Shown: positions 21,824-39,675 of the stretch, piece by piece
Layout: each line of letters begins with the position of its first letter
Position numbering within the stretch: position 1 is the first letter of the stretch
Sequence record: SRR22947725_1323
Length of the DNA: 39,675 bases
Reading direction: 5' to 3' (one strand)
Notes under the pieces: generated by a model
Seen by the model: the letters and a program-made list of their open reading frames with translations, nothing else
Database searches by the model: none
Told to the model about the DNA's origin: nothing
Translations under genes and position numbers: made by a program

Positions 21824-21832
21824 AATCTGTTC

Positions 21833-23260: not shown

Positions 23261-23263
23261 ATC

Positions 23264-23311
23264 AATTTCCGGAAATTATAATCTCGGTATTCTACCAAAA
23301 AACTGTAAAAT
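23264..23311. promoter_or_regulatory. Divergent promoter region pepA/dsbC with a 14-bp palindrome
   Basis: AATTTCCGGAAATT at 23264-23277; minus TGGTAGAAT at 23289-23297; plus TAAAAT at 23306-23311. Confidence 0.45.
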
Positions 23312-23337
23312 TTACCTCTTTAATCATTAGTTTTCAC

Positions 23338-24057
23338 ATGAAAAAGTTTCTTACTATCGCGTTAATCTTTATCACTAATATTGTTTTTGCAGATGTTGGC
23401 ATGATTGTAAATAAATTAAAGCCTTATTTTCCAGAAATTAAGGCTGAAAATATTAGCACTTCTCAGCTGGATGGATACTATGAAGTAGTTCTTACAAACC
23501 CTAGCATTGATGTACTTTACATTTCTATGGATGGAAGATATGTGCTTCAAGGCGCAGTCACTGATCTAGAATTAATGACAAATATTTCCACTAATCGTGT
23601 TAACGCTATCAAACAAAATATGCTTAACAGCATTAGCGATAATGAAAAGATAATCTTTAAATCCGAAAATGAGAAATATGTTGTTCATGTTTTTACAGAT
23701 GTTGATTGCCCCTATTGCGCTAAACTTCATGCAAATATGAATGAAATGAATGCTCTTGGAATTACTGTGAAATATTTGGCCTCACCTCTGGAGCAACTTC
23801 ATCCAAATGCTCAAAGCGCTATGGAAAAAATATGGTGTGCTGAAGATAAGGCGATTGCCATTCACAATTATAAAACTAAGCGATTCTTGCCAAATAGCCC
23901 AGATTGTATTAATCCAGTTGCAGAGCAGCTAGCAATTTCCAAACAATTGGGCGTCAATGGAACGCCATCAATTTTTTTTGAAAATGGATTAAATATTCCT
24001 GGCTATTTAGAGCCCGAAGAGCTTTTAAATAGATTTTTGAATACCCTTGCTCAATAA
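23338..24057 (+). CDS. dsbC: Thiol:disulfide isomerase DsbC family
   Basis: Signal peptide, FTDVDCPYC, second Cys pair IWCA...DC, GVNGTP, PGY. Confidence 0.87.
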   Translation: MKKFLTIALIFITNIVFADVGMIVNKLKPYFPEIKAENISTSQLDGYYEVVLTNPSIDVLYISMDGRYVLQGAVTDLELMTNISTNRVNAIKQNMLNSISDNEKIIFKSENEKYVVHVFTDVDCPYCAKLHANMNEMNALGITVKYLASPLEQLHPNAQSAMEKIWCAEDKAIAIHNYKTKRFLPNSPDCINPVAEQLAISKQLGVNGTPSIFFENGLNIPGYLEPEELLNRFLNTLAQ

Positions 24058-25324
24058 CAATAATTCAAGAGTCATTGCTCATAATGCTATTTGTCTTGTA
24101 GCACTTGAAAAATATACGCTTTCTGAATCGTTATTTCCTAGTGAAACCTCAGAATCTTCATTTGCAAAGTCACTGACTTACGGCTCACTCAGGTTCTATC
24201 ATCATCTTAATGATGTTATAACTCCTCGGCTAAAAAAAACCTTAGACAAAAAAAATCTTGATATTCACATTCTTATAATTATGGGGGCATATCAACTAAT
24301 TTATACTGATGTGTCAACTCATGCTGCCATCAATGAAACAGTCGAGGTGGCAGAAAAAATTAAAAAGCAATGGGCTAAAGGCCTTATCAATGCAATACTT
24401 AGAGGGATTGATAGGGACCGAGATGATATTCTTAATACTCCTCACTATTCTCATCCAAGTTGGCTTGTAAAAAAAATTATGAAAGAATATCCTGATAATT
24501 TTCATAAGATATTTACTGAAAATAATAAACAAGCCCCAATGTCTCTTCGAGTCCATCCATCAATTAATATCAAGTCATATCAAGATAAACTTTTAGAGGG
24601 GGGTATAGAATCTAAGACCTCAAAAATTGCACCTCAGTCTTTGACCCTTAATAAAGCAGTAAATGTAGAAAAATTACCAGATTTTAGAGATGGCTCTTGC
24701 TATGTCCAAGATACTTCTGCGCAACTAGCAGGTCAGCTCATTGCTCCAAAAAATGGTGAATTAATATTAGATGCCTGTTGCGCACCTGGGGGTAAAACAA
24801 CCCATCTTGCTGAGCTTTGTCCTAATTCAGAGATCTTGGCATTAGATGCTGACGAGAAAAGGCTTATCAAAGTCAATGATAATATTAAAAGACTTAAGAA
24901 TAAAAATGTTAAAGTCATTTTAGGAGACGCAACAAAGGGTGACTGGTGGAATCAAAGACTTTTTGATAAGATTTTAGTAGATGCTCCATGCACTGGAACA
25001 GGGGTGATAAGAAGGCATCCAGATATTAAACTTATAAGAAAACCTAGGAACCTTTCCCATATCGTCGAGGTTCAAGCTTCTATTCTTAAGAACTTATGGT
25101 TAATGCTAAAACCTGGAGGCATACTTGTATATGCTACATGCTCGATTTTAAAAGATGAAAATGAAAATCAAATAAGTAAATTTATTAACCTCAATATGGA
25201 TAGTAGTATTGAGGAAATCAGAATTCCTTGGGGCAAAGGCCCTATAGGAAAGCAACAATTACCTAATGATATATTCGATGGATTCTATTATGCTCAGCTA
25301 AGAAAAAAAAGTAAGTCCAAATAA
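24047..25324 (+). CDS. rsmB: 16S rRNA m5C967 methyltransferase RsmB
   Basis: NusB-like N-domain (HAAINETV), DACCAPGGKT, DAPCTGTG, YATCS; TTG start uncertain. Confidence 0.93.
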   Translation: MLNNNNSRVIAHNAICLVALEKYTLSESLFPSETSESSFAKSLTYGSLRFYHHLNDVITPRLKKTLDKKNLDIHILIIMGAYQLIYTDVSTHAAINETVEVAEKIKKQWAKGLINAILRGIDRDRDDILNTPHYSHPSWLVKKIMKEYPDNFHKIFTENNKQAPMSLRVHPSINIKSYQDKLLEGGIESKTSKIAPQSLTLNKAVNVEKLPDFRDGSCYVQDTSAQLAGQLIAPKNGELILDACCAPGGKTTHLAELCPNSEILALDADEKRLIKVNDNIKRLKNKNVKVILGDATKGDWWNQRLFDKILVDAPCTGTGVIRRHPDIKLIRKPRNLSHIVEVQASILKNLWLMLKPGGILVYATCSILKDENENQISKFINLNMDSSIEEIRIPWGKGPIGKQQLPNDIFDGFYYAQLRKKSKSK

Positions 25325-25326
25325 GA

Positions 25327-27663
25327 CTATTTCTCTAATGCAATATCTAAAACCTGGTCAATCCATTTAACTTTAACAATTTCTAGCTTACTTTTTATTT
25401 TTTCAGGCACCTCAGATAACTCACGCTCATTATCTTCGGGAATAATGACAGTTTTAATACCTCCTCTCATTGCGGCAAGAAGTTTTTCTTTCAAACCACC
25501 GATTGGGGTTATTTCACCCCTCAGAGTAATTTCACCAGTCATTGCAACTGCAGCTTTAACTTTTCGACCAGTTAAAACTGAAACAAGAGCTGTACACATT
25601 GCTGCTCCAGCGCTCGGCCCATCCTTCGGTGTTGAGCCATCTGGAACATGGATATGAATGTCCAGTTTTTCATGGAAATCATCTGAAATTCCTAAAGAAT
25701 CGGCACGTAAACGAGTTACTGACATTGCCGCTTGTATTGATTCCTTCATAACATCACCAAGTTGGCCCGTATAGTTTAATTTTCCCTTACCTTTGTATGA
25801 GGATGCTTCAATTGTAAGTAAGTCACCACCAACTGAAGTCCATGCTAATCCTGTTACCTCGCCGATTTGATTATGTTCTTCAGCTAAACCAAATCGATAC
25901 TTCTTCATTCCTAAAAATTTTGGCAAACTTTTAGAGTTAATAATTGCTCTAGCTTTTCGTTTTTTTAGCGTTACGTCCTTAATGACTTTTCTACATATGC
26001 TGCCAATTTCACGATCAAGATTTCGAACACCTGCTTCTCTAGTGTAGTAACGAATAATATCCATAATTGCAGAATCTTTAAAGACTATTTCCGAACTATT
26101 AACACCATTATTTTTCATTTGCTTCGCTATTAAGTGTCTCTTAGCAATTTCGAGTTTTTCATCTTCTGTATAACCAGACAAATGGATGATTTCCATTCTG
26201 TCAACTAATGCTTCTGGGAGGTTTAAGGAATTTGCAGTGGCAACAAACATAACTTGAGAGAGATCATAGTCAACCTCTAGGTAGTGATCATTGAAAGTAT
26301 GATTTTGCTCAGGATCCAAAACCTCGAGCATAGCAGAGCTTGGGTCGCCTCTAAAATCAGAGGCCATTTTGTCTATTTCATCTAGGAGAAATAATGGATT
26401 TTTGACATTAACTTTTTGCATTTTCTGAACGATAGATCCAGGCATAGCACCTATATAAGTTCTTCTATGTCCACGAATTTCTGCCTCATCTCTTACACCG
26501 CCAAGAGCCATGCGAACATATTTTCGATTCACGGATTTTGCAATTGATTCACCCAGTGAGGTCTTTCCTACTCCAGGAGGTCCAACTAAACAAAGTATAT
26601 TGGCCTTATTATGCGTAACACGACTTTGCACAGCAAGGTGCTCCATAATTCTTTCTTTTACTTTATCCAGCCCATAATGATCAGAGTCAAGAATCTTTTG
26701 TGCCTTGACTAAATCTTTATTAGTTTTAGTTTTTTTACTCCAAGGCACTGAACACAAATTTTCTATATAGGTTCTAATGATGGATGCGTCAGAAGACTGG
26801 GATGACATTCTTTGAAGTTTATTAAGTTCACTTTGAGCTTTCTTCTTAGCCTCCTTAGGCATTTTGGCTTTGTTGATACTATTTTGTAAATCCTCAATTT
26901 CATTTTCATCATCAAGGGTGCCGAGCTCTTTTTGAATGGACTTCATTTGTTCATTCAAGTAATAGTCTCTTTGATTAGACTCCATTTGCTTACGGACTCT
27001 ATTCTGAATTTTTTGCTCTGCACCAAGAACATCTAACTCACCTTCAAGGATGGACAAAATTGCCTCTAGTCTATCTTGTGCTTGGCCACTTTCAAGAAGA
27101 CTCTGTTTTTCACTCACTTTGAGACTTAAGTTTGCAATAATTACATCACTAAATCTTTCAACATCGGTAATTTCTTTAAGAACCTTATAAACCTCTTCAG
27201 GGATTTTTTTACTAAGCTTAATATATTTTTCAAAATTTTCTAATGCAAGACGCATCATTGCTTTAATTTCTGTATCGTTATCAAAACTTAAACTACAATC
27301 ACTTAATACGACTTCAGTGTGCTCACCTAAATCTACAAACTCTTCAATTTTTGCGCGTTTAACTCCTTCAACTAGAACTTTAATAGTCCCATCGGGCAAT
27401 TTTAAAAGCTGAAGAATCGTTGCCAAAGTTCCAACCTTGTGAAGATCGTCATTATTTGGCTCCTCAATTGCTTCATCTTTTTGCGTAGCTAAAAAAACAT
27501 TTTTATCTGCTTCCATAGCTTGGGTGATTGCTTTAACAGAGGATTTCCTTCCAATAAATAGTGGAATAACGGTATGAGGAAAAACAACTACATCTCTTAA
27601 TGGTAGAAGGGGGGTTGACTGCTTCTCTAAGCTGTTTGGCTCTGTTGTGATTTCTGCTTCCAT
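25327..27663 (-). CDS. lon: ATP-dependent Lon protease
   Basis: LPLRDVVVFP, GPPGVGKT, PKDGPSAG, IGGLKEK. Confidence 0.97.
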   Translation of the reverse strand: MEAEITTEPNSLEKQSTPLLPLRDVVVFPHTVIPLFIGRKSSVKAITQAMEADKNVFLATQKDEAIEEPNNDDLHKVGTLATILQLLKLPDGTIKVLVEGVKRAKIEEFVDLGEHTEVVLSDCSLSFDNDTEIKAMMRLALENFEKYIKLSKKIPEEVYKVLKEITDVERFSDVIIANLSLKVSEKQSLLESGQAQDRLEAILSILEGELDVLGAEQKIQNRVRKQMESNQRDYYLNEQMKSIQKELGTLDDENEIEDLQNSINKAKMPKEAKKKAQSELNKLQRMSSQSSDASIIRTYIENLCSVPWSKKTKTNKDLVKAQKILDSDHYGLDKVKERIMEHLAVQSRVTHNKANILCLVGPPGVGKTSLGESIAKSVNRKYVRMALGGVRDEAEIRGHRRTYIGAMPGSIVQKMQKVNVKNPLFLLDEIDKMASDFRGDPSSAMLEVLDPEQNHTFNDHYLEVDYDLSQVMFVATANSLNLPEALVDRMEIIHLSGYTEDEKLEIAKRHLIAKQMKNNGVNSSEIVFKDSAIMDIIRYYTREAGVRNLDREIGSICRKVIKDVTLKKRKARAIINSKSLPKFLGMKKYRFGLAEEHNQIGEVTGLAWTSVGGDLLTIEASSYKGKGKLNYTGQLGDVMKESIQAAMSVTRLRADSLGISDDFHEKLDIHIHVPDGSTPKDGPSAGAAMCTALVSVLTGRKVKAAVAMTGEITLRGEITPIGGLKEKLLAAMRGGIKTVIIPEDNERELSEVPEKIKSKLEIVKVKWIDQVLDIALEK

Positions 27664-28958
27664 AATAATGAAACACCTTGCTTATCTAGTAATCTTTCTA
27701 GATAGTGACTAGTTACATTAATTTCAAGTAGCCATTGACCAAATTCGTTCATTATTTCTTTTTTAATAAATCCAACTTTATGTATTTCACTTCTTATATA
27801 TGCCGACTGAACATCTAACTTGATACGTGCAGAAGTCATCATTCCACTAAGACTTTCAGATAAGGCCTCATAAAGAAGATCAACCCCTTCTCCAGTTTCA
27901 GCAGAAAGCCAAACACGAGAAATATTTCCTTCTGAGTCTTTATCGATTCTTGGTTTGAAGTTGACTAGGCCATCAATCTTATTCATTACTAGAATTCTTG
28001 GTATTTTTTGAGCATCTATTTGCTCAATAATATCTTCGACCTGGTCAATTTTATCTCTGTTATTTGGATCAGATGCATCAACAATGTGAAGAAGTACATT
28101 TGCCTGACGTGTTTCCTCTAATGTTGATTTAAATGCCTCAACAAGTTCATGCGGCAAGTCCTGAATAAAACCAACTGTATCCGCGATGACTGCCTCACCA
28201 GATGCTGGCAACATAACTCTTCTAATAGTAGAATCAAGAGTTGCAAATAACTTATCATCTGCATACACTTCAGCATTTGTTAATAGATTGAAGAGTGTCG
28301 ACTTGCCAGCATTTGTGTAACCGGCAAGAGATATCATTGGAAGCTGATTTTTTACGCGAGATTTTCTGCCTAGATCATGTTGTTTGTGAACTTTTGCAAG
28401 TCGCTTATTAATATTTTTAATTCGAATTGAAACAAGTCTTTTATCTGTTTCTAACTGAGTTTCACCAGGACCTCTTAAACCTATACCTCCTTTTTGCCTC
28501 TCTAGGTGAGTCCAACCTCTTACTAATCTGGTTGAAAGATGTTTTAATTGAGCAAGTTCTACTTGCAGCTTTCCTTCAAAAGAGCTCGCTCTTAATGCAA
28601 AAATATCCAATATTAAGCCTGTTCGATCCATAACTTGGCACTTCAATGCTTTTTCTAAGTTACGTTCTTGAGATGGTGATAACTGGTGCGAAAATATAAC
28701 TAGATCAATTTCATTGTCAATTACACTTGATGCAAGTTCATCAACTTTACCAGTTCCAATAAAAAACTGCGCCTTAGTAAAACTTCTTTTTACTAACACT
28801 GTTTCAATAATATTCAGTCCAGAAGAGACAGCAAGCTGTTTAAATTCATTGACACTATCTGGTGATTGACTAATAGAAGTGAGCTCAATATGGACTAGGA
28901 TAGTTCTTTCGCCTTGACCAACCGCATCCTTTTGACGATCAAACAACTCCATAGACAT
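27627..28958 (-). CDS. hflX: Ribosome-splitting GTPase HflX
   Basis: GPGETQLETD, GYTNAGKST, FATLD, DTVGF, NKID; start may be 28952. Confidence 0.96.
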   Translation of the reverse strand: MSMELFDRQKDAVGQGERTILVHIELTSISQSPDSVNEFKQLAVSSGLNIIETVLVKRSFTKAQFFIGTGKVDELASSVIDNEIDLVIFSHQLSPSQERNLEKALKCQVMDRTGLILDIFALRASSFEGKLQVELAQLKHLSTRLVRGWTHLERQKGGIGLRGPGETQLETDKRLVSIRIKNINKRLAKVHKQHDLGRKSRVKNQLPMISLAGYTNAGKSTLFNLLTNAEVYADDKLFATLDSTIRRVMLPASGEAVIADTVGFIQDLPHELVEAFKSTLEETRQANVLLHIVDASDPNNRDKIDQVEDIIEQIDAQKIPRILVMNKIDGLVNFKPRIDKDSEGNISRVWLSAETGEGVDLLYEALSESLSGMMTSARIKLDVQSAYIRSEIHKVGFIKKEIMNEFGQWLLEINVTSHYLERLLDKQGVSLLWKQKSQQSQTA

Positions 28959-28991
28959 TATTGAGTTTTTAGCATACAGAATTTAATTTCA

Positions 28992-30257
28992 TTAGCTTGC
29001 CTTGCGAATAGTTCTTTTCTTATTATCAGATTGATGAACTATTACTGGTTGTTTCAAACCTTCTACAACTGCTTTATCTATCACAACCTCTTTCACACTT
29101 AGGTTAGATGGAATTTCATACATTGTATCTAACAACAAATCCTCTAAGATTGCCCTCAAACCTCTTGCTCCTGTTTTTCTCTTAAGCGCTAATTTGGCAA
29201 TAGCTACAAGAGCATTCTTCCTGATTGTTAGCTTCACTCCTTCAATAGCAAAAAATTGTTGGAACTGTTTCACTACTGAATTTTTTGGCTTCGTGAGAAT
29301 TTCGATTAAAGCATCCTCATCAAGCTCATCCAACGATGTATGAACTGCTAAGCGTCCTACTAACTCAGGAATTAGTCCAAATTTAATTAGATCATCTGGC
29401 TCTAAAAACTTGTAAAGCTCAGTCAAGGTTTTTTTATGACTTTTTTCTTTGACATTGGCCGCAAAACCAATTCCAGCTGCTTTCTCAATTCGTCTATCTA
29501 TAACCTTCCCAAGTCCATCAAAAGCGCCTCCACATATAAATAATATTTTTGAGGTATCAACATCGATCGTTTCTTGATTAGGATGTTTCCTTCCTCCTTG
29601 AGGTGGAACTGAGGCAATAGTGCCCTCAATTAGCTTCAACATTGCTTGCTGAACACCCTCCCCAGAAACATCTCTGGTGATCGAAGGAGAGTCTGAGCGG
29701 CGTGAGATTTTATCTATTTCATCTATAAATATGATTCCTTGCTCAGCTCTTTTTGGATCAAAATCACATTTTGCAAGAAGGCTCTTGATGACATTTTCTA
29801 CATCGTCGCCAACATATCCAGCCTCAGTTAATGTTGTGGCATCTGCCACTGCAAATGGAACATCCAAGAAACGAGCCATTGATTGAGCCAAAAGCGTTTT
29901 TCCACTCCCAGTAGGTCCAATCAAAAGTATATTTGACTTATCAAGCTCAACATCATTGGAAATATAGTCAGCTTTGAGGCGCTTATAATGATTATAAACT
30001 GCCACAGAGAGAACTTTTTTTGCATGGGATTGACCAATGACATATTCATTTAGCGAGCTAAATAAATCTTTAGGAGTGTAATTCCAATCCTGGTATTGAT
30101 CTTTTTTATCCTTGATAGTTTGTTCTTGTATCAAGTTGTAACAAGAGTCTATACACTCGTCACATATATAAACCCCTGGACCGGCGATTAGACGAGTAAC
30201 CTCATCTTTATTTTTTGAACAAAATGAACAACTTAGATCTTCAGTATTTTGATCCAT
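28992..30257 (-). CDS. clpX: ATP-dependent Clp protease ATP-binding subunit ClpX
   Basis: CSFC...ICDEC Zn finger, [16 protein letters not shown] loop; ATG 30257 preferred over TTG 30263. Confidence 0.97.
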
Positions 30258-30271
30258 TGGCAAACTTCAAT

Positions 30272-30868
30272 TTAGCGTTTATTAATGACTTTATCAATAA
30301 GTCCATATTTAGCAGACTCACTTGCAGACATGAAATTATCGCGATCAGTATCTTTTTGTATATTTTTCATACTTTGACCGGTATGCTCTTTAAGGATTGA
30401 ATTTAAATTATCTCTCACCTTCAGAATCTCTTGAGCATGAATATCTATATCACTTGCTTGACCAGAGAACCCTCCTAATGGCTGATGAATCATACATCTA
30501 GCATGAGGAAGAGCAAACCTTTTGCCCTTAGCTCCAGCAGTCAAAAGAAGCGCACCCATACTTGCAGCTTGTCCGATACAAAGCGTTGAAATATCAGGCT
30601 TAATAAATTGCATTGTATCGTAAATTGCTAGGCCTGCAGTGACCGAGCCACCCGGTGAATTAATGTATAAATGAATATCTTTATCAGGGTTTTCAGACTC
30701 CAAAAAAAGGAGCTGCGCAACCACAACATTAGCGGTGTAATCCTCAACAGGACCAACCATAAAAACAACACGCTCTTTTAAAAGTCTTGAATAGATATCA
30801 TAAGCCCTCTCTCCACGACCTGAGCTCTCTATAACCATTGGGATTTGATTTAAATTTTGAATTGTCAT
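30272..30868 (-). CDS. clpP: Clp protease proteolytic subunit
   Basis: [24 protein letters not shown]. Confidence 0.98.
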
Positions 30869-30869
30869 A

Positions 30870-32168
30870 TTAGTTTTGGGTATTCATTATTTCTAAAAAT
30901 GTTTTGTCTGTAGTCGTTACCTTTGCTTTTTCAGCAACATGTTTGGCAACCAAATCCTCAACAACAATTGACTCGATATTAGCCAGCCTTGAAGGGTCTG
31001 TGTTATACCAATCAATCATTTGCTGTGCGCTCTCACCATATTGTAGCGACATTTCATTAAGTTTAGCATCAACCAAATCTTTTTCAGCTGTTATTTCGGA
31101 ATCCGTTGCAATTTTATTAATTAACAAGCCTAATTTAACTCTTCTTGCAGCCTCTTCATTGAACATCTCAGCAGGTAGCTTACCTTTTGATGGCATACCT
31201 TGCTGCTCCATGCGAGACTCCATGTCTTGTTGAAGTTTTTCTGCCTCAGAGGAAATGCTCCCCTCAGGAACTTCGAAATCATTAGCTTCTAGAAGCGCTG
31301 AAAACGCAGTATCTTTGTTCTGCTGAACGAGCCTTGAATCAAGCTCAAGCTTCATTTGGTTAGTCATTCTTGACTTCATCGTTTCAAAATCTTTTTCACC
31401 ATACTTCTTTGCGAATTCATCATCTCTTTTCAGCTCAATTGGTGATCCAATTTCATTAACTTTAACCTTGAATACGGCCTCTCTTCCAGCCAAGTTCTCC
31501 ACATGATAATCCTCTGGGAATGTTGCGTTCACCTCGACAGTTTTTCCAGATGCAACGTCAATAAGCCCTTTCTCGAATCCCTCAATCATTGTTCCTTTTC
31601 CAAGAACAATTTCAAAGCCTTCAGCAGCACCACCTTCAAATGACTCACCATCGAGAAGCCCCTCAAAGTCAATAATTAAGCGGTCACCATCCTTCGATTT
31701 GCGCTTGACCGTCTTATACTCAGTCGAGCGGTCTTGAAGGTCTTGCAGAGCTCTCTCTTCATCTTCCTCAGTCACCTGTGAGCTGACCTGATCAATCGTT
31801 AGTTTAGACAGAGCATTGACTTTAATTTCAGGGTAGACTTCAAACTCAAGCGTATAAATTAAGCTGTCAGCATTCTCTGTATCAATATTTGTTAGGGAAG
31901 GCTGAGTCGCTGGAGAGACATCTGCATCCGTTAATGCATCAGCCAAGGTTTCACCGACAATCTCAGTTGCAGCGTCAGATTTAGCACTTCCACCGAATCT
32001 TTGTTTTAATACGGCAGGCGGAATCTTTCCCTTTCTAAAGCCATCAACACGTACTTTGCCTGCAAGGCCTTTGATAATTTTTTCTGTTCTTTCATTGAAA
32101 ATGTCTACCGGTAATTCAACCGTAAGCGACCTTTTAAGTCCCTCAAGAGTGGTGAGTGAAGTCTTCAT
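30870..32168 (-). CDS. tig: Trigger factor
   Basis: GFRKGK ribosome-binding loop, FKBP-like domain (IDFEG...FEGG, MIEGFE); upstream of clpP. Confidence 0.96.
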
Positions 32169-32260
32169 CTAATTCTAAATCCGTAACTTATTAAAAAAAG
32201 GCAAATTATACAGTATTTTTTAACGTAAAAAAAAGGGCGCTTAGGTCATACAAGATAGAT

Positions 32261-33370
32261 TTAAAAGCGAGACCCAGTATAGCTTACTTGATAATTGGCC
32301 AACGACAACCACTCTTGATTTACCTCAACACCCCAACCAGGTTTATGAGGTAACTCTAGATGTCCATCCACAATTTTAAAGTCAGGGCTAAAAATATTAT
32401 CTTGCCAAGGGTAGTAATCAAGCCCTTCGATTGAAAACTCCAAGTATTTTCCCGGGTTTTTGATTGAGCCCATTAATTGGGCTGAAAAAAGCGTTACTAG
32501 GGACAAATTAGCAGCATGAAGAGTAACCGGAATGCCTTTTTTTTCAGCCAATTTAGCAACCTCAAGTGTCCGAGTAATGCCTCCCATGTAACAAATATCG
32601 GGCTGTACAATATCAACGACTCTGGTATCGATCATGTGCCTCCAAACTCTCATATCGTTATCCTGCTCTCCACCACTCACATCGATATCAAGCGCCTCTG
32701 AAACCTGTCGAGTCCAATCTGGCTCCCAGTAAGGACAGGGCTCTTCGAAATGACTGACGCCATAATCCTGAAGCATATGACCAACCTCGATCGCTTTTTT
32801 AGGACTGTAGGCGCTATTGGCATCAACGAGAAGTGACACCTCGTCACCCAAAGCCTTTCTCACTTCCTTAATAATCGATTCAGTTCGCCCAGGCCACTGA
32901 TCGATGTCGTGCCCGCACTCCCTTCCAATTCTAAACTTAAAAGCAAAGTAGCCATAAGCTTCCTTGAGTATTAAAAGCCTCTCTGCTTCGGCCTCAGATG
33001 AGATCTCTCTTTGCATACTTGAGGCATAAACAGGAACTGAGCTTGGACTCCCACCCAGCAATTGGCAGACACTTTTTTTTGCCCTTTTAGCCTTAATATC
33101 CCAGAGCGCTGTATCTACCCCGCACAAAGCTCTGTAAAGATAGGTACCAGGAAACTTGTGCTCCCTCTCCAAGACCTCCCTGTTGACCTCACTGATATCT
33201 AAAGCGCTCATACCGAGGACATGAGGAGCGACCTGAAGGTGAACAACTTGTGCAGTGATTTCACTGTTATAGGTCGAGGTTTGACCCCAGCCCTCATCAC
33301 CCTCATCCGTTCTCAAGCGGACCAGTCCGACATACTCATTTGTAAAAGTTTCAACGCTAATTATTTTCAT
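32261..33370 (-). CDS. Enolase-superfamily (mandelate racemase subgroup) enzyme, KxR variant
   Basis: DTALWD, FKFRIG, metal ligands in VDAN / FEEP / GGEQ, QPD, His in LHAAN. Confidence 0.9.
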   Translation of the reverse strand: MKIISVETFTNEYVGLVRLRTDEGDEGWGQTSTYNSEITAQVVHLQVAPHVLGMSALDISEVNREVLEREHKFPGTYLYRALCGVDTALWDIKAKRAKKSVCQLLGGSPSSVPVYASSMQREISSEAEAERLLILKEAYGYFAFKFRIGRECGHDIDQWPGRTESIIKEVRKALGDEVSLLVDANSAYSPKKAIEVGHMLQDYGVSHFEEPCPYWEPDWTRQVSEALDIDVSGGEQDNDMRVWRHMIDTRVVDIVQPDICYMGGITRTLEVAKLAEKKGIPVTLHAANLSLVTLFSAQLMGSIKNPGKYLEFSIEGLDYYPWQDNIFSPDFKIVDGHLELPHKPGWGVEVNQEWLSLANYQVSYTGSRF

Positions 33371-33382
33371 AGTATGAGAGAT

Positions 33383-35005
33383 TTAAACATGAACTTGATC
33401 CTGCAAAATAAGATCGGACGCCTTTTCACCCACCATTATGGTTGCGGCGTTAATATTACCACAGACTAGCTTAGGAAATATCGAGGCATCAGCCACCCTG
33501 AGAGACTCTATTCCATAAACCTTAAGATGACTATCAACAACATCTTTTTTGGGATCTGGGCCCATTCTACAGGTACTAGAGGGATGAAAAACTGTCCACA
33601 CGGTATCTTTGATATGCTGAATCATTTGTTTATCACTCTGGCAATCAGGACCAGGCCTAAACTCTTCATCAATCACGTCGCTAAAGCTCTCTGATTGCGC
33701 TATCTTTCTGAGCACCTTAACGCCCTCCAATAAGTCTCTAACATCGTCCTTGTGAGAGAGGTAATTAGGCTCAATGATGGGCGGCTCTGAAGGATCACTA
33801 CTCTTTAATTGAACGCGCCCTCTTGAACGGGGACTGCAATTCGAAATTCCTAGGAGCATCGCTGAAAAGGGGTCTGGACTCATCATCGCTCTTTTGTCGG
33901 GTGATTCCAATGAGTAACTAACAGGTGAAAAATAAAGCTGAATGTTTGGCTTCTCTAGCTCATCGCGTGTCCTTATAAATCCGCCTGACTGGTTAACACT
34001 TAAGCTGAGCGGACCTCTCCTTGTAAAAATATACTGAAGTCCCTGGTAGATTTTTCCAAGGACAGGCCTCAACTGATCATTCAAGGTAGGGACTTTACTT
34101 GTATAAAAATAGCTCACTCCGACATGGTCCTGAAGATTTTCTCCAACGGCGGGGCTGTCATGAACTAAGGGGATTGAGGCCTTTTTTAAGGCGTTTTTGG
34201 GACCAATCCCTGAAAGCTGAAGAAGGTGAGGAGAGTTGATCGACCCTGCACTTAAAATAACCTCACGTTTGGCAGTCACCTGATGAATCTTGCCTGACTT
34301 TTTATACTCAATGCCGAACGCCTTTTTGTCTTGAGTGAGGATTTTTGTAGCCTGAGCATTCTTTATGATAGTCAAATTAGTGCGACCTTTTATGGGCCAC
34401 AAGTAAGCCCTCGAAGAAGACATTCGCTGCCCTTTATGAGTAGTTATTTGGTAGTTACCAACCCCTTCCTGAGTTGCACCATTCATATCTTTATTAAGAC
34501 CAATTCCAATCTCCTGGGCTGCAGACAAAAAGTTTTGACAAAGCGGGTGAAGCTGCTCAGACACCTCAGAGACATTCAAAGGTCCATCGCCGCCTCGATA
34601 ATCATCAGGGCCGTTCTGCCAAGACTCCATTTTTTTAAAATAAGGCAAAACATCACTGTAAGACCAGCCTGGGTTTCCTGCCTCAGACCACTGGTCGAAG
34701 TCCTTAGGGTTTCCTCTCACATATACCATCGCATTGATAGAGCTAGAACCGCCCATGACCTTGCCTCTTGGCCAATAACTCGGCTTATTGTCAGCTTCTG
34801 GACTTGGCTCTGTCATATACATCCAATTGACAGATTTTTGATGATATGTAACTCCATATCCAATTGGCATTTGAATAAAGAAACGACGATCTGAACCCCC
34901 AGCCTCTATAAGTAGTACTTCATTAGATGGATCTTTGCTTAATCTATTTGCTAAAACACATCCAGCCGAGCCAGCACCTATAACTATATAATCGTAATCA
35001 GACAT
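33383..35005 (-). CDS. GMC-family FAD oxidoreductase (choline dehydrogenase-like, substrate unknown)
   Basis: IGAGSAG, PRGKVMGGSSSINAM, NLQDH, FHPSSTC (His), GNINA (Asn). Confidence 0.92.
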   Translation of the reverse strand: MSDYDYIVIGAGSAGCVLANRLSKDPSNEVLLIEAGGSDRRFFIQMPIGYGVTYHQKSVNWMYMTEPSPEADNKPSYWPRGKVMGGSSSINAMVYVRGNPKDFDQWSEAGNPGWSYSDVLPYFKKMESWQNGPDDYRGGDGPLNVSEVSEQLHPLCQNFLSAAQEIGIGLNKDMNGATQEGVGNYQITTHKGQRMSSSRAYLWPIKGRTNLTIIKNAQATKILTQDKKAFGIEYKKSGKIHQVTAKREVILSAGSINSPHLLQLSGIGPKNALKKASIPLVHDSPAVGENLQDHVGVSYFYTSKVPTLNDQLRPVLGKIYQGLQYIFTRRGPLSLSVNQSGGFIRTRDELEKPNIQLYFSPVSYSLESPDKRAMMSPDPFSAMLLGISNCSPRSRGRVQLKSSDPSEPPIIEPNYLSHKDDVRDLLEGVKVLRKIAQSESFSDVIDEEFRPGPDCQSDKQMIQHIKDTVWTVFHPSSTCRMGPDPKKDVVDSHLKVYGIESLRVADASIFPKLVCGNINAATIMVGEKASDLILQDQVHV

Positions 35006-35042
35006 ATATCTACTATGAGTAATTCATCGCGCACAATGTTGA

Positions 35043-35071
35043 AGTTTAAACTGAAATAATAGACGAATCAA
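35043..35071 (-). promoter_or_regulatory. Putative sigma70 promoter for the GMC + enolase pair
   Basis: Minus strand TTGATT (35066-35071)-17 bp-TAAACT (35043-35048); the -10 lies in the palindrome AGTTTAAACT. Confidence 0.5.
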
Positions 35072-35080
35072 AACTTAACT

Positions 35081-36205
35081 TTAAGTGTTTGAAGAAATTA
35101 GATACTTATGAATTGTATCAAAATTAAGTTTACCTCCAATGCCATGCGCGTCATTCAATTTTATCTTTCCATTTTCAATATTTAACCCTTCATCGAAAAG
35201 ATTCGTTCTAAGTGGATTGAAATTAATATCAGTCTCTAAAAAAGCAGTTGGATTGATAGCAGACATAATGTGAGCTGATGTTAACAAACCAACACCACTC
35301 CCTAAAAAATGCATCCAGATTTTATGATTCTGTATATTTCTAGATAGATAATTTATTAGAGAAACTCCTCCATATTTAGTGAGGTCAGGTTGAACAAAAT
35401 TAAGCTCCTCAATCTCACCAAAAAAAACAAAATCATCAAAATTAGTAATATTTTCTCCAAAAGCAAGTCTGCATTTGGTGGCATTAATTAATTGATTAAA
35501 TTCTGCTCTAGTAGATAATGCTGAAATAGGCTCTTCAATCCAAGAAAAATTATAGCTCTCTAATGTTTTGAGATACATAACAGCCTCCTCAAAACTCCAC
35601 CCTTGGTTTACATCTAACATTATCATCTCTTCACTAGATGAGTTATTAGACAATAAATCCAAAAGACCAATATCCAATGAATGATTAAAGCCTATTTTCA
35701 CTTTAAAGGCTTCTATACCGATTGACCTTGCTAATTTTATTTTCTCATTAGATTCATCAGGATTTATTCCACTTGCATAAACAGAAATATGATCTTGGGA
35801 GTCGGGATTTAATAATTTATTAAGGGGTAATTTTTGATTCTTAGCAAACAGGTCCCAAATGGCGCAATCAAGTCCTGAATTAATATTATAAAATGAGCCC
35901 ATATCGCCCGACTGCACAAAAAGAGTTTTAAATTTTTCAGTAACACTTTCTATGAATTTGTCTGGGTTTGAAAACTCACAACCCACAATATTGGAATGAT
36001 AAACATTTTTAAGAAGATTGAATCTATACGAAGCGCCATCGCTCGGAAAATTACACCAAATTTCGCCATACCCGATATTGTGATGATAGTCCTCTAGTTC
36101 AATTATTATGCATGGTCTTGAATTCATAACTCCAAATGAAGTTAAGACAGAATCAACCAACGGAAACTCTAGATAATAAAACCTTAAGGACTTAATCTTA
36201 ATCAA
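35081..36205 (-). CDS. Enolase-superfamily (mandelate racemase subgroup) enzyme, KxK type
   Basis: TSFG, GEIWCNFP, DCAIWD, FKVKIG, LDVN / IEEP / FGEN, QPD, His in MHFLG. Confidence 0.88.
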   Translation of the reverse strand: MIKIKSLRFYYLEFPLVDSVLTSFGVMNSRPCIIIELEDYHHNIGYGEIWCNFPSDGASYRFNLLKNVYHSNIVGCEFSNPDKFIESVTEKFKTLFVQSGDMGSFYNINSGLDCAIWDLFAKNQKLPLNKLLNPDSQDHISVYASGINPDESNEKIKLARSIGIEAFKVKIGFNHSLDIGLLDLLSNNSSSEEMIMLDVNQGWSFEEAVMYLKTLESYNFSWIEEPISALSTRAEFNQLINATKCRLAFGENITNFDDFVFFGEIEELNFVQPDLTKYGGVSLINYLSRNIQNHKIWMHFLGSGVGLLTSAHIMSAINPTAFLETDINFNPLRTNLFDEGLNIENGKIKLNDAHGIGGKLNFDTIHKYLISSNT

Positions 36206-37085
36206 GGTTATTGCTTTTCTTTACAAAATTAAACATAGCGGTCCAATCTAAATCTTTGTACTCAGTGTCCATTGCCTCTTCATAGACATTCACAACACTT
36301 TTCCCTGAAGTTAAATTAATCCCTTCAGATTCTCCATGTTCAATAGCTAAACGTAAGTCCTTCAAGGCCAGTACATTTTTAAAGCCAGGACCTATGTCAT
36401 CAATCAAAACCTTTTTAGGATAACTAAAATTCATATGTCCTTTTCCAGCAGCCGTAGTTGACATTAAATCAATAGCTAGCTTTTGATCTATACCTGATTT
36501 ATGGACCAGAGAGAGTGTCTCAGCTGTCACAATATTTGAAACAATAGCCATATAATTATTAATGATCTTCATTTTGCTACCTGAGCCTATAGGACCACAA
36601 TAAACAACATCACTTCCCATGCATTTTAAAATCTCTTCAATCTTAGAGAAGTCTTTTAAGGAGCCTCCTACCATAATAAGTAAAGTACCATCAATTGCAT
36701 TATTTACGAGACGAGCTACCGGTGCATCAAACATTTGAATATTTTTTTCGAGCATTTTTTTGCTAACTTCAATAGTATCAGCTGGCAATATTGTGCTCAT
36801 ATCAATGAAGATTAAATCGGTATTTTCTTGATTAATAATACCACTCTCTCCAAGCGCAACATCTTTTACATTTTCTCCAATTGGGAGCATGGATATAACA
36901 AAATCTTTGCCATTACATAAGTCTGAAATATTATTAGCTTGTTTAGCATCAACTTCAGTTAAAGTTTGAATAGTTTTTTCATTTGCAAAAGGATCATAAA
37001 AAGAGAGCGAATGCCCATTCTTTACTAAATTTAAAGCCATGGGAAGGCCCATTGTTCCAACCCCTATAAAACCTATATTTTTCAT
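36198..37085 (-). CDS. Beta-hydroxyacid dehydrogenase family, YihU (sulfolactaldehyde reductase)-like
   Basis: GFIGVGTMG, DMSTI, DAPVARL, KIINNYM, TAAGKGH, KDL; the KIINNYM and TAAGKGH segments match my recollection of E. coli YihU. Confidence 0.85.
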   Translation of the reverse strand: MKNIGFIGVGTMGLPMALNLVKNGHSLSFYDPFANEKTIQTLTEVDAKQANNISDLCNGKDFVISMLPIGENVKDVALGESGIINQENTDLIFIDMSTILPADTIEVSKKMLEKNIQMFDAPVARLVNNAIDGTLLIMVGGSLKDFSKIEEILKCMGSDVVYCGPIGSGSKMKIINNYMAIVSNIVTAETLSLVHKSGIDQKLAIDLMSTTAAGKGHMNFSYPKKVLIDDIGPGFKNVLALKDLRLAIEHGESEGINLTSGKSVVNVYEEAMDTEYKDLDWTAMFNFVKKSNNLD

Positions 37086-37101
37086 AATTCCTCTCAGTTA
37101 A

Positions 37102-38526
37102 TTAAACGATATTAATGTTCTTTTTATGAATAAAGGAATATATTGCATCTATTCCTCCCTCATAACCAATCCCACTCTCTTTAATTCCTCCATAAGGAAT
37201 CTCCGGATGCATTGGTGAAGCAGTATTGATAGAAACACCTCCAGCAACAATCTCTTTAGCCATCTTTTCCTGCAAGACTTCACTGGTAGTATAAACATAT
37301 GATGCAAGTCCATAATTTAAAGAATTAGCCTTCTCAATAACATCGTCATAATCATTGAATTTAAATAATGCAAGAATAGGACCAAAAATTTCTTGAGTCA
37401 TCATCTTTGAGCCTTCATGAATATTTTCAATAAGAGTTGGTTCCCAAAAATAGCCTTTATCTTGATATCTACTGCCGCCATAAATTATATTTGAACCATT
37501 TTTAACAGCGTCATCAATAAAATCTTTCATCGCATCAACTCTCCTTGAGTTCGATAAAGGCCCCATTGATATACCATCATTTAATCCATTACCTAAAGTA
37601 ATATTTTTTATTCTATTCAAAAATCCATCTCTCACCTTATCATATATTTTCTCATGCACATAAAAGCGACTAGGTGCAATGCAAACTTGCCCAGCATTTC
37701 GAAACTTAAAACCAGTTAAAGTATCCAGGGTTGTTTCAATATCAGCATCTTCAGCAATAATCGCTGGAGAATGTCCTCCCAATTCAAGAGTGCATCTTTT
37801 AAGTGATTCTGCTGCTTTCTTTGCTAAAAGTTTTCCTACAGGAACTGATCCAGTAAAGCTTACTTTTTTCACTTCATCTCTACTGAGCAGATAATCTGAA
37901 ATTTCATGAGGAACGCCAAATACCAGGTTAATGACATCTTTTGGCAGACCCGCCTCCTGGAATATTTTAATAACCTCAATAGCTGTCCCTGGGGTCTCCT
38001 CTGAAGGCTTAATAATTACCGAACACCCGGCTGCAAGAGCTGGAGCAATTTTTCGAATAACTAAAGCAATTGGAAAATTCCATGCCGTAAGACACAAACA
38101 AACTCCAAGTGGCTGAGGCTTGATTAAAGTTTTGAGTCCATTATCTCGATCGGCCACAACCTCATCTTTAATTAATTTTGCATTTTCTCCATTAAATTTT
38201 AAAATTGCAATGGATTGATTAATTTCACCAGCAGACTCAGCAAGAGGCTTCCCTTGTTCTAGTGTCATAACCTCAGATATCACAGAGATCCTTTCAGATA
38301 AAATATCTGCTGCTCTTAAAATGACTCTACTTCTTATTTCAGGGTCTGTATTTCTCCACTCATCAAAACCCTTCTCTGCGGATTTAACGGCATCATTTAA
38401 ATCGCCCTCAGTTGCATGCGGCAGCCTCCCCAAAACACTTTCGTCAAAGGGATTTAAAACATCCTCACCCTTTTTTGCCTTATATATCCACTTTCCACCA
38501 ATAAATAATCCAAGTTTTGTATACAT
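37102..38526 (-). CDS. NAD(P)-dependent aldehyde dehydrogenase (SSADH / alpha-ketoglutaric semialdehyde dehydrogenase-like)
   Basis: EQGKPL, WNFP, FTGS, LELGGHSP (Glu), KFRNAGQVC (Cys), EIFGP. Confidence 0.92.
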   Translation of the reverse strand: MYTKLGLFIGGKWIYKAKKGEDVLNPFDESVLGRLPHATEGDLNDAVKSAEKGFDEWRNTDPEIRSRVILRAADILSERISVISEVMTLEQGKPLAESAGEINQSIAILKFNGENAKLIKDEVVADRDNGLKTLIKPQPLGVCLCLTAWNFPIALVIRKIAPALAAGCSVIIKPSEETPGTAIEVIKIFQEAGLPKDVINLVFGVPHEISDYLLSRDEVKKVSFTGSVPVGKLLAKKAAESLKRCTLELGGHSPAIIAEDADIETTLDTLTGFKFRNAGQVCIAPSRFYVHEKIYDKVRDGFLNRIKNITLGNGLNDGISMGPLSNSRRVDAMKDFIDDAVKNGSNIIYGGSRYQDKGYFWEPTLIENIHEGSKMMTQEIFGPILALFKFNDYDDVIEKANSLNYGLASYVYTTSEVLQEKMAKEIVAGGVSINTASPMHPEIPYGGIKESGIGYEGGIDAIYSFIHKKNINIV

Positions 38527-38544
38527 ATGTCTCCAGTAAAAATA

Positions 38545-39492
38545 TCAATTGTCAATTAATACATTTTTTAATTTTTGTACTCGCTGTTTTCCTTCTAAGT
38601 TTATCCAATCCATAAAACTATCTTGGCCAGATTTGCAGAAGATATCAATCGAGTCTTGCCAAATTGATCTTCCACACAAAAAACCTAAACAATCTATTTT
38701 TGAAGATTTAGCAAGCTCCAAACTATTTAAAAAATTATTAAATTTCATTCCTGCACTCAGAAAAACAAAGGGTGTTGTGCCATTCTCAAAGCACTCTTTC
38801 ATTATTTCAGAGCAATTTTCATAGCTATAAATTGATGAAATACCATCGTTTTCAAATCCTTTCACTTGAGCTTCATTAAAAGGGAATTCGATCTTAATGA
38901 TATCAATTTGATATTCCTCTTTAGAGAATTCCTTATAAAGGTATTTAATATAGACTGGTTTTTTTAATAAATACCTTTGATACTCGATTTCAGCTCCCTC
39001 ATCAAAGTAGAGAAGTGGCTCAAATAAATAAGGTATATCTAGATCTTTACAGATTTGACCAACATGCTTAATTACCTTAAATTTTTCATTATTAATGATT
39101 GGATCAGAGTCTGGATTAAAGTACATAAAAAATTTAATAGCTGAGAAATCTTTTATGATTTCATCATTCTGATTCAATATTTTTGGTAGCAAGGTAATGC
39201 GTGATTTATTATCTATATTGTATGCGTCATCTTCGTATGCAATTATTTTAGAAGTCTCAATACTTCTGAAGCAAGGGTCACTCAAGTATGTGTCATAATC
39301 AAATAAAACAGATGAAGCGTCGATACCAAGATTCAAAATGATTTGCTTCTTAAAAAGAAAATAGTCTGTAGTTGTAAACGTCGCCCCTTTGCTCTCTTTA
39401 ATAATATCTTTTAAGCTAGTTCCTTGATCAATTGCAAGTGCTGCAAATTTTCCATTCTGCAAAAGTTGATTGAAATGATCTTGCTTACTCAT
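38545..39492 (-). CDS. Class I aldolase, LacD (tagatose-1,6-bisphosphate aldolase) family
   Basis: ALAIDQ, AIKFFMY, FEPL, DIIKIEFP (Schiff-base Lys), FLSAG, LCGRSIW. Confidence 0.87.
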   Translation of the reverse strand: MSKQDHFNQLLQNGKFAALAIDQGTSLKDIIKESKGATFTTTDYFLFKKQIILNLGIDASSVLFDYDTYLSDPCFRSIETSKIIAYEDDAYNIDNKSRITLLPKILNQNDEIIKDFSAIKFFMYFNPDSDPIINNEKFKVIKHVGQICKDLDIPYLFEPLLYFDEGAEIEYQRYLLKKPVYIKYLYKEFSKEEYQIDIIKIEFPFNEAQVKGFENDGISSIYSYENCSEIMKECFENGTTPFVFLSAGMKFNNFLNSLELAKSSKIDCLGFLCGRSIWQDSIDIFCKSGQDSFMDWINLEGKQRVQKLKNVLIDN

Positions 39493-39675
39493 TACAGATG
39501 AAAATAAGGTGCCGAACTTGGTGAGGCCCAGAGACTCCTCATTTGTTCATTTGAGTTCAGTAAAGATATTGAAAACCCAGCACTTTCTTGTGTTGTTATA
39601 TATTCATTAACTAGAGGCTTAAAACATTGAATTTTATATTGAGCAAGATACTCCTCAACGTCATTATAAATTACT
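39492..39675 (-). CDS. 3' end of a dihydroxyacetone kinase DhaK/Dak1-family protein (partial)
   Basis: Hand translation: VIYNDVEEYLAQYKIQCFKPLVNEYITTQESAGFSISLLNSNEQMRSLWASPSSAPYFHL*; resembles the DhaK C-terminal pattern LVGxYxTSxExAGxSITLL...LW.AP; TAATG overlap with the aldolase start. Confidence 0.75.
   Translation of the reverse strand, partial: VIYNDVEEYLAQYKIQCFKPLVNEYITTQESAGFSISLLNSNEQMRSLWASPSSAPYFHL

Follow-up and report, generated by a model that had tools for sequence, protein, structure and literature searches.

What does a run of five tightly packed genes at one end of an assembled stretch of DNA do for the organism that carries it? The stretch, record SRR22947725_1323 (39,675 nt, hereafter the window), closes with the 3' end of dhaK and with complete genes for a LacD-like class I aldolase, an aldehyde dehydrogenase (ALDH), a YihU-like reductase and an enolase-superfamily enzyme that we call MR1 (Table 1). 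An earlier note on this DNA had read them as a candidate (sulfo)ketose operon that phosphorylates a sugar, cleaves it and then reduces or oxidises the resulting aldehyde. We found that the five genes are the 3' end of a 17-gene accessory island of 18,344 bp, present in full in a complete genome of the same genus (G079). The gene content suggests a general scheme of glycoside import, hydrolysis, isomerisation, phosphorylation at C1, aldol cleavage, and reduction or oxidation of the aldehyde, and we give this scheme a little better than an even chance of being right.

The five genes are the end of an accessory island

All five open reading frames (ORFs) proved real, co-oriented and tightly packed. 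The junctions are also as the earlier note had described them. The TAA stop of dhaK (39494-39492) and the ATG of the aldolase gene (39492-39490) have one base in common (TAATG), gaps of 18 bp and 16 bp separate aldolase from ALDH and ALDH from reductase, and the ORF coordinates give an overlap of 8 bp between the reductase and MR1 genes at 36198-36205. We consider the arrangement more than chance because the family scores are strong (502.6 bits for the ALDH, 139 and 72 bits for the reductase) and because the gene order recurs in genome and metagenome loci. The idea of a five-gene operon thus held for the genes, their order and their tight packing, but the window includes no more than 60 residues of DhaK, and the real unit is far larger.

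In G079 the entire insert sits between the same core genes as in the window. The remaining island genes upstream of the five lie beyond window position 39675, as seen in G079 and in a metagenome contig (L040) that is 99.0% identical to window 28548-39675 (11,128 bases) and extends upstream of it. One strand of the G079 island encodes a FucI/SftI-like isomerase, a binding protein, two permeases, an ATPase and a GH51-like glycosidase. The other encodes E1 alpha, E1 beta, a GntR/HutC regulator, a nucleoside-hydrolase-fold protein, a ketose 3-epimerase-like protein, DhaL, DhaK, the aldolase, the ALDH, the reductase and MR1. The DhaL, isomerase and transporter genes that the earlier note had suggested looking for beyond 39675 were all found upstream in the island, in G079 and L040. 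The GH31 sulfoquinovosidase that it had also named is missing from the 17 genes, in which the hydrolases are GH51-like and of the nucleoside-hydrolase fold.

The island had a guanine-plus-cytosine content of 0.326 in G079, compared with 0.356 and 0.344 in the flanks, and no integrase or transposase gene was seen among its 17 genes. The nearest genome, G001 (1.71 Mb, one contig), matched window 20000-34996 at 98% and held nothing resembling 35081-39675.

Distribution and horizontal transfer

Two of the 122 family genomes, both from the set of 43 that belong to the genus, had an ortholog of the aldolase; 12 other genomes of the genus had only a paralog of 30-33% identity. A scan of the genome collection returned 19 loci, namely one contig of G009 and 18 loci with the same gene order minus the ALDH. 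Sixteen of these 18 are titled uncultured Alphaproteobacteria and two are metagenome-assembled genomes labelled otherwise. In the SAR11-like alphaproteobacterial order to which genome G062 belongs, 15 of 187 genomes had the ortholog. Of the 48 loci from the metagenome scan, 30 contain the ALDH (gamma type), 13 lack it (alpha type) and 5 were too short or unrelated. None of the alpha-type loci had an ALDH, whether from genomes (18 loci) or from metagenomes (13 loci). The order DhaL-DhaK-aldolase-(ALDH)-reductase-MR1 recurred in the 19 genome loci and in 43 of the 48 metagenome loci. The genes are therefore conserved together in marine genomes, a point the earlier note had left to be checked, over more than 60 loci in two bacterial classes.

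The two loci labelled otherwise, L028 ('Methanobacteriota archaeon') and L035 ('Gammaproteobacteria bacterium TMED225'), carry an alpha-type island with about 53% aldolase identity to the window, as in the alphaproteobacterial records, and are probably mis-binned contigs. One alphaproteobacterial single-cell genome (L038) has both the aldolase gene and the MR1 gene broken into two ORFs (9941-10904 and 11794-12919), reflecting either decay or sequencing errors.

Between G079 and G062, protein identity was highest for permease 1 (90%), permease 2 (88.5%), the binding protein (86%) and E1 beta (86%), followed by E1 alpha (79%), the isomerase (77%), the nucleoside-hydrolase-fold protein (75%), DhaK (74%), the ATPase (73%) and the GH51-like protein (66%). 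It was lower for the epimerase (62%), reductase (58%), aldolase (53%), DhaL (49%) and MR1 (45%). ClpX is 56% identical between the same two lineages. These comparisons indicate that the island passed horizontally between the gammaproteobacterial genus and SAR11-like alphaproteobacteria. Because the importer identities lie far above that of ClpX, at least the importer half has moved between the classes recently, and the island is a mosaic. Within the genus, the reductase (97.6%), ALDH (96.4%) and aldolase (92.4%) of the window were closer to those of G079 than were the flanking trigger factor (79%), MR2 (81%) and GMC (83%) proteins, which suggests exchange by recombination there too; MR1 was 76% identical.

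The predicted kinase and aldolase

Full-length DhaK has 332 residues in L040 and G079. The ortholog scored 301 bits on Pfam Dak1, and the DhaL ortholog 110 bits on Dak2. On the NCBIfam model dhaK1 the fragment in the window reached 31 bits and the full-length ortholog 306.6 bits, against a cut-off of 406; DhaL reached 135 against 138.3. The DhaK motifs GSGHEP, NHAGD and GVHGE align with those of the solved DhaK proteins of E. coli and L. lactis, and we take them, with their residue roles and numbers, to hold the substrate-binding and catalytic His, Asp and His. DhaK binds its substrate covalently. Neither DhaM (TIGR02364) nor an enzyme I of the phosphotransferase system (PTS) above cut-off was found in G079, G001 or G062, and DhaK/DhaL (DhaKL) should therefore use ATP.

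The aldolase passed the NF009498 cut-off and scored 134.3 bits on the lacD equivalog TIGR01232, against a cut-off of 432. Its best solved relative was LacD.2 (128 bits). Ten solved relatives were retrieved at E <= 0.001, nine LacD-type tagatose-bisphosphate aldolases and one DUF2090 protein (8TNF), with no YihT chain among them. Residues K200, E158, S246 and R275 were invariant in 14 orthologs and align with the LacD.2 motifs KVEVP, LEIL, LSAG and CGR. The Lys stands in IIKIEFP and the Glu in FEPL, both aligned with the LacD active site, and Ser246-Ala-Gly and Gly-Arg275 were likewise invariant in the 14 sequences. We presume that these are the Schiff-base Lys, the catalytic Glu, and the phosphate-site Ser and Arg of LacD. 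In YihT, phosphate is bound by Ser226, Ser227 and Arg253, according to the excerpts available of PMC8006165. Since the phosphate-site motifs are kept and aligned with LacD, and since the YihT phosphate site is also built from Ser and Arg, the substrate of the aldolase is most likely a ketose 1-phosphate formed by DhaKL. In the island aldolase an invariant Gly replaces the Arg of LacD's DQRG motif, a change that may mean that the distal end of the substrate carries no phosphate.

The earlier note had offered two roles for the kinase, phosphorylation of the ketose and salvage of free dihydroxyacetone (DHA). A role as ketose kinase is favoured, because the 17 genes of the island encode no kinase other than DhaK/DhaL and because the Ser and Arg that align with the phosphate sites of LacD and YihT are retained in the aldolase. 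The overlap of the dhaK and aldolase genes in TAATG also agrees with a kinase step placed before the aldolase.

Reductase, aldehyde dehydrogenase and MR1

The best NCBIfam match of the reductase was sulfolactaldehyde 3-reductase (NF012005; 281.4 bits, cut-off 348), followed by tartronate semialdehyde reductase (202 bits). Its best solved relative was YihU (6SM7, 193 bits), and its motif PVAR aligns with PVGR of YihU. Members of the beta-hydroxyacid-dehydrogenase family that bind carboxylates have a Ser-Gly-Gly motif where YihU has an Arg-containing one. The sulfonate pocket of YihU consists of Asn174, Ser178 and the backbone of Arg123, as stated in the available excerpts of PMC8006165, which cites the YihU structure. 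All 30 orthologs retain the Arg and Asn positions; at the Ser position 10 have Ser and 20 have Ala. Ser occurs in all 10 alpha-type sequences, and Ala in 19 gamma-type sequences, the window included, and in L082; the gamma version thus keeps two of the three pocket positions and the alpha version all three. Among the 120 matches listed in a homolog search of the reductase there were only marine orthologs. Some of these orthologs bear the JGI label '4-hydroxybutyrate dehydrogenase/sulfolactaldehyde 3-reductase', which is automatic and not independent evidence.

The ALDH reached no NCBIfam equivalog. Its best solved relatives were succinate semialdehyde dehydrogenase (5VBF, 400 bits), alpha-ketoglutarate semialdehyde dehydrogenase (5X5T, 386 bits) and 8C54 of the GabD type (329 bits). 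By sequence it thus falls among dehydrogenases of acidic aldehydes, of the succinate semialdehyde, alpha-ketoglutarate semialdehyde and sulfolactaldehyde types.

MR1 also reached no equivalog, the best being talarate/galactarate dehydratase (98 bits, cut-off 500). Its best solved relative was 3DDM (198 bits), which is named just a putative MR/MLE enzyme, and the ESM Atlas gave generic names alone for MR1 and for the nucleoside-hydrolase-fold protein. Residues K168, K170, D198, E224, E251, D274 and H299 were invariant in 27 distinct orthologs and align with 3DDM; we take them to be the KxK motif, the three acidic metal ligands and the His-Asp dyad. Enolase-superfamily enzymes abstract a proton adjacent to a carboxylate, and members of the mandelate-racemase (MR) subgroup act on carboxylates.

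Importer, hydrolases and isomerase

The permeases of the ATP-binding cassette (ABC) importer resemble anion and polyamine ABC systems. In the translations and their consensus, the binding protein (416 residues) begins with a hydrophobic leader, whereas the two hydrolases start without a visible signal peptide, so hydrolysis should follow import.

The GH51-like protein scored 223.8 bits to the alpha-L-arabinofuranosidase 4ATW, relative to which it has an insertion of some 160 residues (between positions 42 and 205). Its GNE and DEWN motifs are aligned, and presumably hold the two catalytic Glu of GH51. The nucleoside-hydrolase-fold protein scored 65.8 bits on Pfam IU_nuc_hydro and has an invariant DTDTANEIDD, two residues longer than the DXDXXXDD motif of nucleoside hydrolases. 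Its model had a predicted template-modelling score (pTM) of 0.80, and the top Foldseek matches were all riboside hydrolases (template-modelling score 0.5-0.66, identity 12-19%). A profile of this protein found 2 matches in a draw of 401 genomes of the phylum (G677 and G501). Both stand alone in unrelated contexts, near a sensor kinase, an MbnB-like gene, UvrA and DUF1217, and give no hint of the substrate.

The only clear family match of the isomerase was SftI, at 137.9 bits against a cut-off of 700, together with a weak AraA_central match; no solved relative was found by sequence. The ketose 3-epimerase-like protein had the 5-keto-L-gluconate epimerase IolO as its second-best family (172 bits).

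A candidate catabolic route

From the gene content we infer the following reactions, together with the nature of the substrate. The ABC importer, with its YnjB/PotD-type binding protein, would take up a small glycoside or conjugate that is probably charged. In the cytoplasm, the GH51-like furanosidase and the nucleoside-hydrolase-fold enzyme would release an aldose, which the FucI/AraA/SftI-like isomerase would convert to a 2-ketose, with C3 adjusted by the epimerase-like enzyme. The ATP-dependent, two-subunit DhaKL would then phosphorylate the hydroxymethyl group beside the carbonyl (C1), and the LacD-like aldolase would cleave the ketose 1-phosphate to dihydroxyacetone phosphate (DHAP) and a short aldehyde bearing an anionic group, either sulfonate or carboxylate. 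The YihU-like reductase would reduce this aldehyde, and in the gammaproteobacterial version alone the ALDH could oxidise it instead. MR1 and the E1 pair, which resembles the E1 of pyruvate dehydrogenase (PDH), probably serve a carboxylate branch, with dehydration or epimerisation of an acid and decarboxylation of a 2-oxoacid. The genes make up a single conserved catabolic unit whose content fits the earlier logic of kinase, aldolase and aldehyde reduction or oxidation, but the link to a sulfosugar is unproven.

RNA libraries were also searched. Between 53% and 81% of sampled words of 35081-39675 were present in six metatranscriptome runs from five studies, and contigs from four runs, each of a different study, lay on this segment at >=95% identity. 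One contig of 2,899 nt covers the reductase, ALDH and aldolase genes, and others bridge MR1-reductase and ALDH-aldolase-dhaK, although such libraries can include DNA and a contig is no proof of a single transcript.

Several points weigh against the proposed route. The RNA-library contigs are consistent with transcription in the sea without proving either transcription or one transcript, and a scan of 32000-39675 gave 21 promoter-like and 9 terminator-like sites, against 23.2 and 5.6 expected from shuffles. To our knowledge, the characterised substrates of DhaK-family kinases are C3-C4 ketoses, and a C5-C6 substrate is without precedent. The binding protein is of the YnjB/PotD type and not of the usual sugar type; no solved sequence relative was found for it, and its structure model had a mean predicted local distance difference test score (pLDDT) of 32.7, from an alignment of 10 rows. 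The epimerase-like protein could act instead on a phosphorylated intermediate, the anionic character of the aldehyde is drawn by analogy from enzyme families, and the route leaves the roles of the E1 alpha/beta pair and MR1 unexplained.

Which substrate?

Readings of the locus differ over the sugar. Made more specific, the reading of the earlier note becomes a new variant of sulfoglycolysis, which is possible but doubtful: a sulfosugar would be isomerised, phosphorylated by DhaKL and cleaved to DHAP and sulfolactaldehyde (or to sulfoacetaldehyde, from a C5 sulfosugar), and the aldehyde reduced to 2,3-dihydroxypropane-1-sulfonate (DHPS) or isethionate, or oxidised to sulfolactate or sulfoacetate. 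YihU is the closest family and the closest solved relative of the reductase, with Arg123 and Asn174 of its pocket kept throughout and Ser178 in a third of the orthologs, and SftI is the only clear match of the isomerase; yet both scores (281 against 348 and 138 against 700) are under cut-off, and the aldolase is closer to LacD than to YihT, which is absent from its 10 solved relatives. The relation of the ALDH to the GabD-type enzyme 8C54 agrees with a sulfonated aldehyde. Xsc scored above cut-off in both host lineages, which would therefore be sulfonate users. A TauE-family gene lies at or beside the insertion site, but it belongs to the core genome and not to the island. No GH31 or other known sulfoquinovosidase is encoded in the island, where the hydrolases are of the furanoside type, and MR1, which needs a carboxylate, is conserved in the alpha version, where, because the ALDH is lacking, a sulfosugar would yield no carboxylate intermediate for it. 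The available part of a 2026 review of sulfoquinovose catabolism (PMC12890257) names no DhaK-type kinase. We also considered a more specific and distinctly improbable proposal, that the island adds a sixth form of sulfoglycolysis, or opens the first route into an anionic furanosidic phytoplankton metabolite not recognised so far, with a DhaK-family C5/C6 ketose 1-kinase and with MR1 beta-eliminating sulfite from sulfolactate to give pyruvate for the PDH-E1-like pair. If true, such elimination would be a new C-S lyase chemistry for the enolase superfamily.

A carboxylated sugar, which we regard as unlikely, draws support from MR1, given that MR-subgroup enzymes act on carboxylates and that the catalytic set of MR1 is invariant. 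Here a uronate-like sugar or keto-aldonate would give a hex-5-ulosonate of the tagaturonate type, be phosphorylated beside the keto group and be cleaved to DHAP and tartronate, malonate or glyoxylate semialdehyde, which the reductase would convert to glycerate, 3-hydroxypropionate or glycolate, resembling distal inositol catabolism. The second-best families of the reductase (tartronate semialdehyde reductase) and of the epimerase (IolO) agree with this, as do the solved DUF2090 relative of the aldolase and the likeness of the permeases to anion and polyamine systems. The reductase, however, has YihU's Arg-containing motif and not the Ser-Gly-Gly of carboxylate binders, no uronate isomerase or dehydrogenase family was found, and all the family scores are under their equivalog cut-offs. 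We know of no abundant furanosidic uronate that could serve as substrate.

The hydrolases would also suit another reading, with L-arabinofuranosides or ribofuranosides as substrates. These would yield a pentose, then L-ribulose or ribulose, its C1 phosphate, and finally DHAP and glycolaldehyde, with oxidation to glycolate by the ALDH. Such a route for a neutral pentose, to which we assign a low probability, would be a natural parallel to those for fucose, rhamnose and D-arabinose, or would amount to a DHAP shunt of non-orthologous enzymes that handles 5-substituted riboses. It draws on the GH51 match to alpha-L-arabinofuranosidases with aligned catalytic motifs, on the nucleoside-hydrolase fold of the other hydrolase and on the weak AraA_central match of the isomerase. 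L-Ribulose shares with D-tagatose the 3S,4S configuration that LacD handles, and acyclic 5-deoxy-pentuloses would suit covalent binding by DhaK. The characterised reductases of the beta-hydroxyacid-dehydrogenase family and the nearest relatives of the ALDH nevertheless use anionic substrates, reduction of glycolaldehyde would waste carbon in the alpha version without ALDH, and the binding protein is not of the sugar type. Arsenosugars, methylthioadenosine, S-ribosylhomocysteine, hydroxyproline arabinosides and apiose are speculation as substrates.

That DhaKL merely salvages free DHA or glyceraldehyde, with the aldolase acting on an unphosphorylated or bisphosphorylated ketose, or that the adjacent genes are functionally unrelated, we consider very improbable. 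DhaK does carry the catalytic motifs of DHA kinases and, at full length, scores near the dhaK1 cut-off, albeit under it. But the aldolase keeps its phosphate-site motifs and no other island kinase could supply a phosphorylated substrate; no LacC, LacAB or PTS genes were found, and the gene order and overlaps are conserved over two classes and more than 60 loci. The canonical tagatose/galactitol pathway was ruled out, since LacAB, LacC and PTS are missing and the equivalog scores fall far under cut-off.

Insertion site and neighbouring genes

The features discussed here are collected in Table 1. The GMC and MR2 genes are co-oriented with the five and are followed by tig, clpP, clpX, hflX and lon. 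They are core neighbours outside the island, because both are present in the island-free genome G001.

Table 1. Genes and junction at the right-hand end of the island, in window coordinates
Feature	Position	Strand	Remarks
dhaK, 3' end	39492..39675	-	last 60 codons and stop (coding 39495-39674); Pfam Dak1 38.8 bits, cut-off 31.4
LacD-like class I aldolase, 315 aa	38545..39492	-	Pfam DeoC/LacD 56.4 bits; NCBIfam NF009498 229.7 bits, cut-off 184
NAD(P)-dependent ALDH, 474 aa	37102..38526	-	Pfam Aldedh 502.6 bits
YihU-like reductase of the beta-hydroxyacid-dehydrogenase family, 295 aa	36198..37085	-	Pfam 139 + 72 bits; NCBIfam sulfolactaldehyde 3-reductase 281.4 bits
MR1, MR-subgroup enolase-superfamily enzyme, 374 aa, final island gene	35081..36205	-	Pfam MR_MLE_C 113 bits
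Right-hand junction of island and core genome	34997..35080	.	homology to G001 ends at window 34996
GMC (choline-dehydrogenase-like) oxidoreductase, core neighbour outside the island	33383..35005	-	NCBIfam PRK02106 628 bits; present in G001
MR2, second enolase-superfamily enzyme, core neighbour	32261..33370	-	Pfam MR_MLE_C 180 bits; present in G001

At the place of the island, G001 has a TauE-family gene, divergent from the GMC gene and beside an OpuAC-type ABC system. The TauE/SafE-family gene lies at 16943-17680 of L006 and at 14506-15276 of L062. Five metagenome loci still have it between MR1 and GMC, but the window, G079 and 15 other loci do not, and gain of the island would therefore have been accompanied by TauE loss in one lineage. 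At the junction, the GMC gene is only 89% identical to G001 in its 5' part (window 34282-34996, compared with L006 17787-18501), whereas the 15-kb core stretch averages 98%; this part may mark a recombination boundary.

Two further loci showed other surroundings. In L065 (14466-17329) the island is followed by an FGGY kinase and a DAO/glycerol-3-phosphate-oxidase-like gene in place of GMC-MR2, which is a different insertion site or a rearrangement. In L094 (6546-9272; G062:C1, SAR11-like) the GH51-like gene is followed by genes for a hexapeptide transferase, a PALP (CysK/CBS-like) enzyme and a Cys/Met-metabolism pyridoxal-phosphate enzyme, which are not alongside the island in G079; a tie to it through sulfur amino acids is conceivable.

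Significance and comparison with known systems

SAR11-like alphaproteobacteria and heterotrophic relatives of SUP05 are among the most numerous marine bacteria and have tiny, streamlined genomes. An 18-kb island that is kept there, exchanged across classes and apparently transcribed in situ points to a substrate common in seawater. Knowing this substrate would fill in a step of the marine carbon cycle, and perhaps one of the sulfur cycle. It would also extend what DhaK-family kinases and LacD-family aldolases are known to do, and assign roles to two orphan enzymes, one of the enolase superfamily and one of the nucleoside-hydrolase fold.

The earlier note had not recognised this combination of enzymes as a described pathway, and full-text literature searches, which covered the article texts, likewise found no description. 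The portions available of the 2026 review PMC12890257 contain no DhaK, dihydroxyacetone kinase, SAR11 or epimerase, and those of a 2025 paper on Arctic SAR11 and SUP05 genomes (PMC12421898) no dihydroxyacetone, arabinofuranosidase or sulfolactaldehyde.

In outline the island resembles the sulfo-Embden-Meyerhof-Parnas (sulfo-EMP) pathway of E. coli (YihS, YihV, YihT, YihU), which, as far as the accessible parts of PMC8006165 and PMC12890257 describe it, also uses an isomerase, a ketose 1-kinase, a class I aldolase yielding DHAP and an aldehyde, and a YihU-type reductase or an ALDH. The kinase differs, being PfkB (YihV or SqiK) in sulfo-EMP and DhaK/DhaL in the island, whose 17 genes include no PfkB. 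The aldolase is LacD-like and not YihT, the isomerase is of the FucI type and far under the SftI cut-off, and a sulfoquinovosidase is lacking. The ketose 3-epimerase, the GH51-like and nucleoside-hydrolase-fold hydrolases, the PDH-E1-like pair and the MR-type enzyme are additions of the island. Judged by sequence families, membership in sulfo-EMP fails on the kinase, aldolase, isomerase and glycosidase. Island-free G001 holds a separate cluster (L020, G001:C1:988000-1004000, about 8058-13408) with a sugar ABC importer, a GFO/IDH/MocA oxidoreductase, a PfkB kinase, a 2-hydroxyacid dehydrogenase, an FGGY kinase, a LacD-like aldolase paralog (31% identical; NF009498 325 bits) and an SftI-like isomerase (302 bits, cut-off 700). 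That cluster looks more like a classical sulfo-EMP-type or rare-sugar cluster, and its type of aldolase paralog was present in 13 of the 37 genus genomes searched.

LacD of the tagatose-6-phosphate pathway is like the island aldolase in family, catalytic Lys/Glu and phosphate-site motifs, in keeping with the NF009498 match. The lacD equivalog score (134 against 432), the absence of LacAB, LacC and PTS from the island and the change of the DQRG Arg to Gly set the two apart. DhaK-family kinases acting on a ketose other than DHA are known from erythritol and threitol catabolism, in which the erythrulose kinases LerK and DerK work. Like the island kinase, these are found alongside a xylose-isomerase-like TIM-barrel enzyme, but they are fused DhaK-DhaL proteins that act on C4 ketoses and are not followed by an aldolase.

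The L-fucose, L-rhamnose and D-arabinose pathways consist of an isomerase, a ketose 1-kinase, a ketose-1-phosphate aldolase and a reductase or dehydrogenase for lactaldehyde or glycolaldehyde. The reaction order and the choice between reducing and oxidising the aldehyde would be the same in the island; in those pathways, however, the kinases belong to the FGGY family, the aldolases are class II metal enzymes and the alcohol dehydrogenase is of the iron type, in contrast to DhaKL, a class I aldolase and a reductase of the beta-hydroxyacid-dehydrogenase family. The DHAP shunt for 5'-deoxyadenosine and methylthioadenosine runs through a nucleosidase, a kinase, an isomerase and a class II aldolase. 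It shares with the proposed route the hydrolysis of a riboside, followed by formation of a ketose 1-phosphate and its cleavage to DHAP and a short aldehyde, and it differs in that phosphorylation of the aldose precedes isomerisation, which takes place on the phosphate ester, in that all the enzyme families are different and in that there is no importer. By analogy, then, the island would work like the ketose-1-phosphate pathways represented by sulfo-EMP, by fucose, rhamnose and D-arabinose catabolism and by the DHAP shunt, but would be built from other enzyme families.

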